Source: Escherichia coli | Lineage (GTDB): Bacteria; Pseudomonadota; Gammaproteobacteria; Enterobacterales; Enterobacteriaceae | Length of the DNA: 64,000 bases | Assembly: GCF_051903065.1 (NCBI RefSeq) | Contig: NZ_CP178438.1 | Reading direction: 5' to 3' (one strand) | Part shown: positions 24,001 through 27,000 of the stretch, piece by piece | Layout: every line of letters starts with the position of its first letter | Numbering within the stretch: the first letter of the stretch is position 1 | Position numbers: made by a program

Positions 24001-27000
24001 TCAACCCAATATCGTGCTGCTCGATGAACCCAGCGCCTCGCTGGACGAAATGGCAGAAGCGTATTTAATCGAACAACTGAAACAGTGGATTGGGCATCGC
24101 ACGCTGATTATCGCCACTCACCGCACGGCGATGCTGCAACTGGTGGACCGCATCATTGTTATGGATCAGGGGCGGATTGTGATGGATGGCGCGAAAGAGG
24201 CCATTTTGCGTGAACAGGGCGAACCCACGACGCGACGGGTGGTGTTGCAGGAGAAGAATAAGGGGTCTGCGGCATGAACGGACAACTGCAATATAACCGT
24301 GGCCTGACTGAACCCCGCTTGCCGCGTTCGGCGCTGGCGGTACGCGTTACCGCTGTAATGCTGCTCTGTTTTCTCGGCTGGGCGTGGTACTTCCAGCTTG
24401 ATGAAGTCACCACCGGCAGCGGCACGGTAGAACCCTCCGGGCGCGAACAGGTGGTGCAGTCGCTGGAAGGCGGAATTCTGTATCATCTGAACGTGAAAGT
24501 TGGCGATATTGTCGAACAGGGCCAGCCGCTGGCGCAGCTTAACCGCACCAAAACTGAATCCGACGTCCAGGAAGCGATGTCGCGGCTGTACGCGGCGCTG
24601 GCAACCTCGGCGCGGCTGCGGGCGGAAGTGAGCAATAAACCGTTGGTCTTCCCTGACGAACTGAATAAATTCCCCGAACTTATCGAGTCGGAAACGGCGT
24701 TGTACAACACTCGCCGCGACGGGTTGAACAAAGCCACCACCGGGCTGACGCAGGGGATTAGCCTGGTCAACCGTGAACTGGCGATGACCCAGCCGCTGGT
24801 GAAACAGGGGGCGGCGAGCAGCGTCGAAGTGCTGCGCCTGCAACGCCAGGCCAATGAACTGGAAAACAAACTCAGCGACGTGCGCACGCAATACTACGTT
24901 CAGGCGCGGGAAGAGTTAGCGAAAGCCAATGCGGAAGTGGAAACCCAGCGTTCGGTGATCCGTGGGCGTGAAGACTCCCTCACCAGGCTCAACTTTACTG
25001 CGCCAGTTCGTGGCATTGTTCAGGATATTGACGTCACCACGGTTGGCGGCGTCATCGCCCCCGGTGGTAAACTGATGACCATCGTGCCGCTGGATGAGCA
25101 ACTGCTGATTGAGGCAAAAATCTCCCCGCGCGATGTGGCGTTTATCCATCCGGGGCAAAAATCGCTGGTGAAAATAACTGCCTACGATTACTCCATCTAC
25201 GGCGGCCTGCCGGGAGAAGTAGCGGTGATATCACCAGACACCGTGCAGGATGAAGTGCGGCGCGATGTTTATTACTATCGGGTGTACATTCGCACTTTCA
25301 GCAACCATCTGGAAAACAAAAGCAAACAGCAGTTTCCGATATTCCCCGGTATGGTGGCGACGGTCGATATCCGCACCGGCAAAAAAAGCGTGCTGGATTA
25401 TCTGTTGAAACCCTTTAACAAAGCACAGGAGGCGTTGCGCGAACGATGAACATTAGCGATGTAGCAAAAATTACCGGCCTGACCAGCAAAGCCATTCGCT
25501 TCTATGAAGAGAAGGGGCTGGTGACGCCGCCGATGCGCAGCGAAAATGGTTATCGAACCTACACGCAGCAGCATCTCAACGAATTGACCTTACTGCGCCA
25601 GGCGCGCCAGGTGGGCTTTAACCTGGAAGAGAGCGGCGAGCTGGTGAATCTGTTTAACGACCCGCAGCGTCACAGTGCCGACGTCAAACGTCGCACGCTG
25701 GAGAAGGTGGCGGAGATTGAACGGCATATCGAAGAACTGCAATCTATGCGCAACCAGCTACTGGCGCTGGCGAATGCCTGCCCCGGTGATGACAGCGCCG
25801 ACTGCCCGATTATCGAAAATCTCTCCGGCTGCTGTCATCATCGGGCGGGGTGATTAACGCTTGCGAAAATAGTCGTCCATTATTTTCGTCAACTCCGGAC
25901 GTTCGCCGTCATCATTGATGGCAAAATCCAGAAAAAAAGCATCTGCTTGCGGCGTTCGGTTTTGCGCCATCAACCGGAAGGTGAGGGGGCGATAACTGAC
26001 GTATGCCGGATAGCTGATAACGAATCGGGCAAAGTCAATAAAAAGCGGCGAGTGTGTGAAAAACAGCGCCTGCAAAATTACATCAGCCTTTTCATCCTCC
26101 CCCAAACCTTGTTGGATCATGCTCTTAATACGAGTTTCGCTCAAATTCCCGGCCTCAACAATTTGCCAGGCTTGATCCAGTGAAGGGTACCGGCTGACGC
26201 TCTGCTGCAACTCTTCTGACCAGGTTTCGGATGGGCTGATGTGCTTATCAGGGCCGAAACTCTCCCATGCGCCGGACGGTAATGTTTTCCACTCAGTGAG
26301 TTTGGGAACGTGGCACAGTAGCTCTGTTTTGTGCAGACATTCTCCGCCCGGAAATACCAGGGTTTGTTGCTCATCATTAAAACGGGTTGCCGTGCTGAGT
26401 ACCAGTGTTTTGAGCGGTCGCCCTTCCAGTGCGGCAGCAGTGGCCTTATGGTGCCCGTCGAGCAGAACGCAGAGATAGGAATCAGGGAGATACCAGGCCA
26501 AAGCGCGGGCGTCCGGTTTATCGCGATAAAACGTCACACGCTCAGGATTAAAATGTGATGGCGGCTGTCCAGGAAGAAGAAAACAGGGGGCGGTGTTACA
26601 GAAATAGCAATATTCAGGATCCCAGACGGCAACGGTTGCCGGATTACTGGCGCTATGGTCCGTTGCCGCCCAAAAGAAATGCCCATTGCCATCCGTCGGG
26701 TAAAGTTCACGATCTTCCAGCAGATAATAGCCATCAGCAAGGCATGAGAACAGCGGTGTAAGCGCGGCAAAAGCGTCCGTAAAGCCAGACCATGGGCGAT
26801 TCCAGTTTTCGAGAGCAGACAAAAACCGGGCGGCTCCCTGTTCATCATCCGCAAAACCGCTGTAGACAAATTCCGCGCAGGTGGGGCAGCCGGCCTCGGA
26901 CCAGAAACGTATTACCGGGACATCCTGCCAGCAGAGTGAACGGATAAGCCCATAAGGGTGCGGATCGTAAAGCACACATTGACGCAGAAATCCTTTACCG

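Follow-up and report, generated by a model that had tools for sequence, protein, structure and literature searches.

The gene for the copper-sensing regulator CueR in this E. coli strain is placed between two variable blocks of the chromosome and appears to have all of its expression signals within neighbouring coding sequence, i.e. it is probably transcribed from a promoter of its own in the end of the preceding hlyD gene (start at A25286) and translated from an AGGAGG of its own. We put the probability of this overall reading at roughly 0.78. It builds on coordinates, homology, genome counts and the transcription start sites mapped in EDL933 and MG1655, all of which are direct observations. 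The layout is a known and ordinary kind of arrangement, and the known function of CueR is unaffected by these findings.

Absence of non-coding DNA around cueR

In the window, i.e. the whole stretch of 64,000 nucleotides that was analysed (contig NZ_CP178438.1 of assembly GCF_051903065.1), a gene for an HlyD-family type I secretion adaptor (24274-25449, plus strand; a homologue of hlyD28 of O-island 28 according to Pfam, TIGR01843 and PGAP) and cueR (25446-25853, plus strand; a Cu(I)-sensing MerR-family regulator of 135 aa according to Pfam and a match to PDB 1Q05) have the ATGA at 25446-25449 in common. At its other end, the TGA of cueR (25851-25853) is directly followed by TTA (25854-25856), which is the TAA of a 409-aa ORF of unknown function on the minus strand (25854-27083), so that the two stop codons abut at 25851-25856. 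Both contacts had been described in an earlier note on this DNA, and its coordinates proved exact; its statement that cueR has no non-coding DNA to accommodate a promoter or terminator also holds, as intergenic sequence amounts to zero at both junctions. Its description of cueR as wedged between island genes is likewise correct: variable blocks flank cueR on either side, namely a type I secretion system (T1SS)/SiiEA island of the O-island 28 (OI-28) type on the left and, on the right, the 409-aa gene together with a YadA/lipoprotein block. The left junction, with an intact hlyD, recurs in 959 of 5426 complete E. coli genomes and thus is neither a peculiarity of this strain nor a product of chance. 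Four-base overlaps also occur between the ABC gene and hlyD and between ybbJ and qmcA within the same window, and ATGA overlaps are common as such.

Putative start signals of cueR within hlyD

A cueR start site inside hlyD has been mapped by Cappable-seq in E. coli O157:H7 strain EDL933, at position 604687, 160 nt upstream of the ATG (PMC10469882). It corresponds to position 1012 of the 1176 positions of hlyD, is assigned to cueR (604847-605254) in supplementary files 6 and 8 of that study, and was detected in triplicate in eight of eight conditions (LB, M9, LB plus malic acid and LB plus NaCl, each in exponential and stationary phase), with a modest signal of 4-9 in the units of the table (PMC10469882). 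Since our alignment shows no difference between EDL933 and the window from -224 through the cueR stop, this site can be placed at A25286. Ending 7 nt ahead of it is a -10-like TACTAT (25273-25278; four of six consensus positions), preceded at a spacing of 17 nt by a poor -35-like ATGAAG (25250-25255; three of six), which together would define a promoter at 25250-25286 on the plus strand. We infer that the EDL933 start site is active in this strain too, with the choice of hexamers being read from the sequence. Most likely, therefore, cueR transcription starts at a dedicated sigma-70-type promoter in the final fifth of the HlyD-family gene, whose last ~200 bp would also hold the promoter, the 5' untranslated region and the Shine-Dalgarno sequence of cueR.

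A consensus promoter scan of 24900-26500 returned no plus-strand promoter, the two hexamers above scoring below its threshold; we rejected this as proof that there is none, because the same scan also misses all three mapped K-12 start sites. A literature search with the phrase 'cueR promoter' found no papers, and the SMRT-Cappable-seq supplements make no mention of cueR.

K-12 lacks the T1SS operon. The last 96 bp of hlyD (25350-25445, plus strand) persist in K-12-type genomes as a non-coding, frameshifted fossil adjoining cueR, which is evident from alignments and marked as a pseudogene by PGAP. Compared with the window, this fossil carries seven substitutions and a 1-bp deletion, all confined to the stretch from -93 to -48; positions -47 to -1 are identical. 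The K-12-specific differences include G to T at -51, T to A at -48 and the loss of a G at -58. Cappable-seq of MG1655 reported three primary 5' ends for cueR, at -39 (relative read score 100), -86 (49) and -115 (3.7) (PMC4782308), the strongest being 513178 in U00096.2, 39 nt upstream of the ATG (supplement of PMC4782308; the coordinate offset was checked against the sequence). A -10-like hexamer precedes each of them by 6-7 nt; the -39 start falls into the hlyD fossil and the -86 start at the deletion scar. The window counterpart of the strongest K-12 start (25396-25407, plus strand) consists of GATTAT at 25396-25401, which is GAATAT in K-12, and G25407 at -39, where the EDL933 tables report no start site (PMC10469882). 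RegulonDB gives yet another K-12 start, at -19, so the K-12 assignments are provisional.

These data do not bear out the inference that cueR has no promoter of its own and depends on the T1SS genes, with which the earlier note had suggested it may be co-transcribed: EDL933 uses the -160 start in eight of eight conditions, and K-12 produces primary cueR 5' ends without the operon. The note had added that an active promoter in the 3' end of hlyD identical to that of K-12 would make the overlap incidental. An active promoter does exist there in EDL933, but it differs from the K-12 promoter, since the -160 site lies to the left of the K-12 deletion endpoint and the K-12 starts are those at -39, -86 and -115.

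For translation, the sequence contains a Shine-Dalgarno AGGAGG (25427-25432, plus strand) 13 nt before the cueR ATG, embedded in the hlyD codons Q-E-A. Positions -24 to -1 are identical at every Escherichia locus examined, including that of E. albertii. The cueR leader is predicted to be unstructured and folds worse than shuffled sequences (z = +1.8), for which reason a hairpin in the spacer between Shine-Dalgarno and ATG, considered as a candidate, was dropped; an Rfam search of 24000-31000 gave no match. Thus, cueR would be translated from its own AGGAGG in an unstructured leader and hence independently of the ATGA overlap.

Probable transcript overlap with the convergent gene

The earlier note suggested that convergent transcription could affect cueR expression, an idea with outside support. 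TGA|TTA is also found in K-12, there with ybbJ as the partner, and TGA|TTA or TGA|CTA occurs with the 409-aa gene in E. albertii, E. whittamii and other Escherichia. In ~48 of 80 enterobacterial species loci, the stop codons of cueR and of its convergent neighbour are separated by -14 to +5 nt; tight packing is a family-wide trait, and this junction, like the left one, is neither peculiar to the strain nor due to chance. A scan of 24900-26500 detected no intrinsic terminator on either strand at the cueR 3' junction; the three terminator-like hairpins that it did find on the minus strand do not exceed shuffled controls. Transcripts of cueR and of the convergent gene probably overlap in the way recorded for K-12 cueR-ybbJ, with those of the 409-aa gene probably running antisense into cueR, as judged by analogy.

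It is a further step, and an unlikely one in our view, to regard this as the main regulatory feature, with transcription of the 409-aa gene (or of ybbJ-qmcA in K-12) lowering cueR expression via polymerase collision or cleavage of RNA duplexes by RNase III. The junction free of terminators on both strands and the packing retained across the family would fit such a role, and cueR-ybbJ is listed among the convergent excludons of MG1655, seen in at least 50% of RNA-seq samples (PMC12288877). Moreover, EDL933 has a minus-strand start ('d-asTSS' 605353) located 99 nt past the cueR stop and pointing at cueR (PMC10469882, supplementary file 7), whose counterpart in the window, with an identical 46-nt context, is found at 27264 on the minus strand, 181 nt upstream of the 409-aa ORF. 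This antisense start is weak, however, and was detected in only three of eight conditions, and what has been recorded for K-12 is an overlap of transcripts rather than an altered CueR level or copper response. As is typical of MerR-family regulators, CueR functions at low copy number, with Cu(I) as its allosteric activator, so modest changes in its mRNA may not matter.

Possible contribution of the type I secretion operon

Upstream, hlyD is linked to the T1SS ABC permease/ATPase gene (22116-24277, plus strand; Pfam) and to a 6925-aa adhesin ORF (1335-22112); in strain A16 these are preceded by a TolC-family gene, within which the window begins. Comparison with A16 and O157 reveals that the ABC gene is frameshifted here, having 2162 nt instead of 2163 nt owing to a change from AAA to AA at ~23513, which splits it into the ORFs 22116-23873 and 23519-24277. 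The window is 100% identical to A16 over 24200-27200 and ~98% identical elsewhere, and the frameshift is its own, so the window does not come from A16 itself. OI-28 has been characterized as a T1SS/RTX adhesin system regulated by RstA and Ca2+; all five of its genes respond jointly to both, the site of RstA action being located upstream of tolC28, and cueR is never mentioned in that paper (PMC12758282).

Because hlyD and cueR are on the same strand with overlapping codons, because no plus-strand terminator-like site is present in 24900-26500 and because of this published joint response to RstA and Ca2+, cueR could be imagined to be mainly the last gene of a tolC28-siiEA-hlyB-hlyD-cueR operon, translated by coupling through the ATGA, with copper sensing placed under RstA/Ca2+ control. 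The zero spacing and a 4-nt overlap typical of coupled genes would suit this idea, but we consider it quite improbable. The -160 start serves cueR in all eight EDL933 conditions (PMC10469882); the T1SS operon is missing from 82% of complete E. coli genomes, which keep cueR with nothing but the 96-bp fossil; and the invariant Shine-Dalgarno sequence must suffice in K-12, where there is no translated upstream ORF to couple to. In the window itself, the frameshifted ABC gene would halt ribosomes ~400 nt before hlyD, a situation that favours Rho-dependent polarity. With a putative promoter of its own inside hlyD, cueR could still receive RstA/Ca2+-controlled read-through from the T1SS genes, as no terminator fits between hlyD and cueR; this could add to cueR transcription but would not be required for it.

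Identity of the proteins involved

CueR of this strain matches residues 1-135 of PDB 1Q05 at 134 of 135 positions, the sole difference being D103N, and retains the C-terminal metal-binding loop with cysteines C112 and C120 (a stretch of 11 residues). Its helix-turn-helix and dimerization helix are recognized by Pfam (MerR_1, 3.5e-19; MerR-DNA-bind, 4.7e-17; MerR, 1.2e-15). Owing to this near identity to the characterized protein, it very likely activates copA and cueO in a Cu(I)-dependent manner. The HlyD-family protein, with Pfam matches to HlyD_3/HlyD_D23, scores 328.2 bits against TIGR01843 (cut-off 208.65), its residues 185-391 aligning to positions 217-422 of the 422 of the model, i.e. 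through the C-terminus, and PGAP annotates the same gene in A16, O157 and EDL933. The 409-aa ORF starts at GTG and is called as 407 aa by PGAP; the Salmonella homologue of its product is encoded elsewhere, between rihA and hscC, so the gene has no conserved link to cueR outside of Escherichia.

The GTG start and differing length calls of the 409-aa ORF and its lack of a family assignment are the features that might suggest that the tight junctions are an artefact of annotation or assembly, due to a misplaced cueR start or to flanking ORFs that were called too long, but we reject this explanation with near certainty, since the CueR N-terminus and length are exactly those of the crystallized protein, HlyD aligns up to the final position of its family model, the 409-aa protein is assigned a confident fold and has homologues along its full length in several genera, and the junction sequences repeat across hundreds of independent complete genomes.

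Evolutionary history and implications

The deletion allele with ~96 bp of hlyD fossil is shared by 4459 of 5426 complete E. coli genomes (4352 of these at 99% identity or more), each E. coli genome examined having either this fossil or an intact hlyD (959), and E. albertii has a shorter fossil of ~58 bp with another endpoint. That the shared 96 bp are genuine hlyD sequence follows from the match of the HlyD C-terminus to the last position of TIGR01843. The converse, that hlyD had borrowed its C-terminus from native DNA upstream of cueR, was rejected, because the family model is matched to the end and the corresponding outgroup regions are unrelated. In outgroup genera, copA and cueR are divergent and ~110 bp apart, with a CueR box adjoining the cueR start, and their cueR upstream regions do not resemble that of Escherichia. 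With cueR located beside the copA promoter in other enterobacterial genera, the entire cueR 5' region of Escherichia is hlyD-derived. The arrangement probably originated when insertion of glsA-ybaT and the T1SS island separated the copA promoter from the cueR start codon. In the K-12 lineage, the island would later have been lost, with 96 bp of hlyD retained and transcription moved to starts in the fossil and at the deletion scar.

Taken to its full extent, this leads to a scenario that we hold only tentatively. Escherichia cueR would have lost its copA-adjacent control and come to be run wholly by signals in the coding end of a horizontally acquired T1SS adaptor gene; the K-12-type deletion of a 27-kb island would have removed the -160 promoter, with rescue by new starts (a -10 element in the fossil with two lineage-specific changes and the 1-bp deletion, and a TATTAT at the junction); in island-bearing strains, read-through would tie the CueR supply to RstA and Ca2+; and hlyD28 mutants may have unintended cueR defects.

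The last point has a practical side. Because hlyD28 would contain the promoter of cueR as well as its leader and Shine-Dalgarno sequence, deleting this gene or inserting a cassette into it can alter cueR expression and hence copper or acid tolerance. Mutants of this sort have been made for a study of OI-28 in virulence (PMC12758282), and side effects on cueR could confound adherence or colonization phenotypes. In K-12, the 'intergenic region' between ybaT and cueR consists of a T1SS adaptor gene fossil and a deletion scar and is where the mapped cueR starts are located, and regulatory databases differ on the cueR start (-19 in K-12 versus -160 in EHEC). More generally, the locus may represent a clean evolutionary example of a core regulator whose control region was replaced by, and then outlived, an accessory island.

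Relation to known systems

The closest relative of the locus is O-island 28 of O157:H7 (tolC28, rtxA28/rtxB28 = siiEA, hlyB28 and hlyD28), which has the same gene order, hlyD and cueR that are 98-100% identical to those of the window, and the same ATGA overlap. It differs in that its ABC gene is intact where that of the window is frameshifted and in that it lacks the 409-aa gene with which the block to the right of cueR opens here. The K-12 ybaT-cueR region is homologous over the 96 bp before the ATG, with the same Shine-Dalgarno sequence and start codon, whereas the -160 promoter is deleted, the -10 region of the -39 start has acquired a 1-bp deletion and two changes, and the deletion junction has created the TATTAT that serves the -86 start.

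At the 3' end, the cueR-ybbJ excludon of MG1655 resembles the window in being tail-to-tail with neither spacer nor intrinsic terminator, and there the transcript overlap is documented, but the partner in the window is the 409-aa gene instead of ybbJ. Salmonella, Citrobacter, Enterobacter, Klebsiella and Kluyvera have the same cueR (82-91% protein identity) in the same stop-to-stop contact with ybbJ. In these genera, the cueR start is ~110 bp from copA and adjoins the CueR operator and the copA promoter, whereas in Escherichia the operator region stays with copA-glsA and the sequence upstream of cueR is replaced up to the ATG.

Finally, the primary 5' end mapped in EDL933 inside hlyD, 160 nt before cueR, is akin to the sense intragenic start sites that Ettwiller et al. 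found to be stronger, as a tendency, toward gene 3' ends (PMC4782308). What sets it apart is that its host is a gene of an accessory island and the gene served is a core regulator, and after loss of the island a part of the host gene has been kept as a fossil with different start sites.

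The two junctions of cueR

The CueR protein encoded in the window is identical to the crystallised E. coli CueR (PDB 1Q05) in 134 of 135 residues over its full length. Its gene (25446..25853, + strand) shares the ATGA at 25446-25449 with the end of the HlyD-family gene (hlyD, 24274..25449, +), and its TGA stop (25851-25853) is directly followed by TTA (25854-25856), the stop of a convergent minus-strand ORF of 409 aa (25854..27083). The coordinates that an earlier note had assigned to both junctions proved exact when sequence and ORFs were checked. Its statement that cueR has no room for signals outside coding sequence also holds, as neither junction has a spacer. 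The hlyD product matches TIGR01843, the model for HlyD family type I secretion adaptors, with 328 bits (cut-off 208.65) in an alignment reaching the last model position, i.e. its C-terminus is a genuine family C-terminus. Upstream of hlyD follow a T1SS ABC gene and an ORF for a 6925-aa adhesin, and the window matches E. coli strain A16 at 100% identity within 24200-27200 and at about 98% outside this stretch.

To the left of cueR lies the O-island 28 block known from O157:H7. A recent study (PMC12758282) describes it as a T1SS/RTX-adhesin system under the control of RstA and Ca2+, exerted via the region upstream of tolC28, and does not mention cueR. Among 5426 complete E. coli genomes, the denominator of all genome counts, hlyD adjoins cueR as in the window in 959, the 409-aa gene is present in 965 (full length in 270), a lipoprotein/67-aa block occurs in 1416, and hlyD and the 409-aa gene are found together in the window-like arrangement in 74.

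Start sites of cueR and the T1SS operon

Two published Cappable-seq data sets, for O157:H7 EDL933 (PMC10469882) and MG1655 (PMC4782308), locate the transcript starts of cueR. In EDL933, studied in triplicate under eight conditions, the start site 604687 (+) was assigned to cueR (604847-605254) in 8/8 conditions (PMC10469882, supplementary files 6 and 8). It lies 160 nt before cueR, at position 1012 of the 1176-nt hlyD. Because EDL933 and the window are identical from -224 (counted upstream from the cueR ATG) through the cueR stop, this site maps to A25286, the candidate cueR start in the window, which is preceded by a putative -10 element, TACTAT (25273-25278, +), and, 17 nt further upstream, by an ATGAAG that reads as a putative -35 element. 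A start at -39 is not listed in the EDL933 set. For MG1655, plus-strand starts are reported at 513102, 513131 and 513178 (U00096.2), with relative read scores of 3.7, 49 and 100 (PMC4782308, supplement). With an offset of +776 to NC_000913.3, confirmed with a known sigma-54 motif, these precede the cueR ATG by 115, 86 and 39 nt, and the -10-like hexamers TAACAT, TATTAT and GAATAT, respectively, lie 6-7 nt before them; the RegulonDB start for K-12 is at -19 (as cited in PMC10469882). Taken together, these start sites suggest that island-bearing strains transcribe cueR from a promoter of its own within hlyD, which K-12 has lost and replaced by the use of others. A promoter in the 3' end of hlyD and identical to that of K-12, which the earlier note had named as what would make the overlap incidental, is borne out with respect to its location, as the EDL933 start is inside hlyD, but not with respect to its identity with K-12.

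The proposal that cueR relies on co-transcription with the T1SS operon therefore does not follow from the lack of space: in EDL933 an internal promoter is active in every tested condition, on sequence identical to that of the window, and 82% of the genomes keep, and are taken to express, cueR without the operon. Operon read-through into cueR is possible, because a sequence scan found no terminator-like site between hlyD and cueR, but in the window strain a 1-bp deletion near 23513, which frameshifts the ABC gene and leaves about 400 untranslated nt before hlyD, would weaken it. By this change (AAA to AA in comparison to A16 and O157) the ABC permease/ATPase gene (22116-24277) is split into ORFs of 585 and 252 aa, and, barring a sequencing error, this strain probably lacks a working secretion system for its intact SiiEA-type 6925-aa adhesin. 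Translation of cueR should not need coupling, since the AGGAGG 13 nt 5' of its ATG does not vary within Escherichia and the leader is predicted to lack structure.

A published EHEC delta-hlyD28 mutant was made by lambda-Red replacement of the very gene that holds the -160 start, the leader and the Shine-Dalgarno sequence of cueR (PMC12758282). A polar effect on copper homeostasis is conceivable in this mutant, and the point that hlyD28 knock-outs may disturb cueR is modestly new.

Origin of the cueR control region

The match between the window and K-12-type genomes begins at 25350 and continues rightward, i.e. K-12-type genomes keep the final 96 bp of hlyD directly 5' of cueR as a frameshifted fossil, labelled an incomplete pseudogene by PGAP. 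At the K-12 junction, the sequence between a point 29 nt past the ybaT stop and one about 96 bp short of the hlyD end has been cleanly deleted. One common allele of this junction is found in 4459 of the 5426 genomes (at 99% identity or more in 4352 of these 4459), and the 4459 genomes with the fossil and the 959 with hlyD make up nearly all 5424 cueR-bearing genomes. Fossil and intact hlyD differ at eight positions, all between -93 and -48, with -47 to -1 being identical, and the MG1655 start at -39 lies entirely inside the fossil. E. albertii has a shorter fossil (about 58 bp) with another left endpoint, and its -24 to -1 region, AGGAGG included, is identical to that of other Escherichia.

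TATTAT, the -10 element of the MG1655 start at -86, spans the island-deletion junction (1895-1907 of the locus fetched from NC_000913.3, in the ybaT-cueR region), with one part coming from the left flank (...CCTGTA(T)) and the other from hlyD (...TATGGTGG). This K-12 promoter is created by the deletion scar itself.

Among cueR loci fetched from 80 enterobacterial species, hlyD homology adjoins cueR in Escherichia only. Salmonella, Citrobacter, Enterobacter, Klebsiella, Kluyvera and others have copA and cueR in divergent orientation, separated by about 110 bp, with the CueR operator and copA promoter directly adjoining the cueR start, and no Escherichia-like sequence was found in the cueR upstream regions of these genera. 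In the simplest history, an Escherichia ancestor would have come to carry glsA-ybaT and the T1SS island between the copA promoter and the ATG of cueR, the original 5' region of cueR being replaced as far as the start codon, and the K-12 state would be a later deletion. It is modestly new that the entire cueR control region of Escherichia is hlyD coding sequence, and likewise that the K-12 ybaT-cueR 'intergenic' region consists of an hlyD fossil and a promoter-creating scar.

The 3' side of cueR

Stop-to-stop contact as an effect of the island can be dismissed, as the cueR TGA of K-12 abuts the TTA stop of ybbJ alike. At about 48 of the 80 species loci, the stops of cueR and ybbJ are spaced by -14 to +5 nt, and in 32 of these 48 the spacing is a 4-nt overlap. 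The junction is also an insertion hot spot, occupied in Escherichia by the 409-aa gene and/or a YadA/lipoprotein block and in about 25 Citrobacter, Kosakonia and Phytobacter-type species (L012-L076; also Siccibacter) by a 2.85-kb insert. In the single insert locus examined (L014, 4408-7247), this comprises a DUF3142 gene and a 717-aa TPR gene, the terminal one overlapping the cueR stop by 4 nt, like ybbJ elsewhere. The inserted genes are unrelated, yet end exactly at the cueR stop.

Overlap of cueR and ybbJ transcripts is among the convergent excludons of MG1655 (PMC12288877). EDL933 has a minus-strand start 99 nt past the cueR stop in three conditions; the identical sequence is at 27264 in the window, upstream of the 409-aa gene. 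Of the sigma-70 consensus matches in this region, the best one (ATGACA-18-GATAAT, 10/12; 25809-25838, -) is antisense within the cueR 3' end and conserved in K-12; from this putative promoter, an antisense RNA across cueR could arise.

The 409-aa protein matches no Pfam, NCBIfam or PADLOC family. Its homologues always abut cueR in Escherichia; that of Salmonella sits elsewhere in the genome, flanked by rihA and hscC (also described next to hscC/djlB), and distant ones occur in Firmicutes. A confident AlphaFold (AF2) model (pLDDT 85) predicts an N-terminal beta domain, a ParB/sulfiredoxin-like domain, in which D209-G-H-H212 is invariant and K213 near-invariant, and a C-terminal alpha-solenoid. 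Strains whose only insert is the 409-aa gene, such as LTC101 (6728-6845 of its locus), have a 118-bp spacer with a REP-like palindrome (GCCGGATGCGGCGTAAACGCCTTATCCGGC) between this gene and ybbJ, and their final ~9 ybbJ codons differ from the K-12 allele. Further to the right in the window, a YadA-anchor adhesin (27876-29678, -) has 600 aa, against annotated lengths of 349 aa for A16 and 338 aa for O157, with a 346-bp tandem duplication detected by BLAST in the coiled-coil stalk region.

Overall, the layout of cueR is real yet ordinary in kind, combining a probable promoter within the 3' part of the upstream gene, a 4-nt overlap and tail-to-tail packing: 4-nt gene overlaps are common, and tail-to-tail packing at cueR is family-wide.
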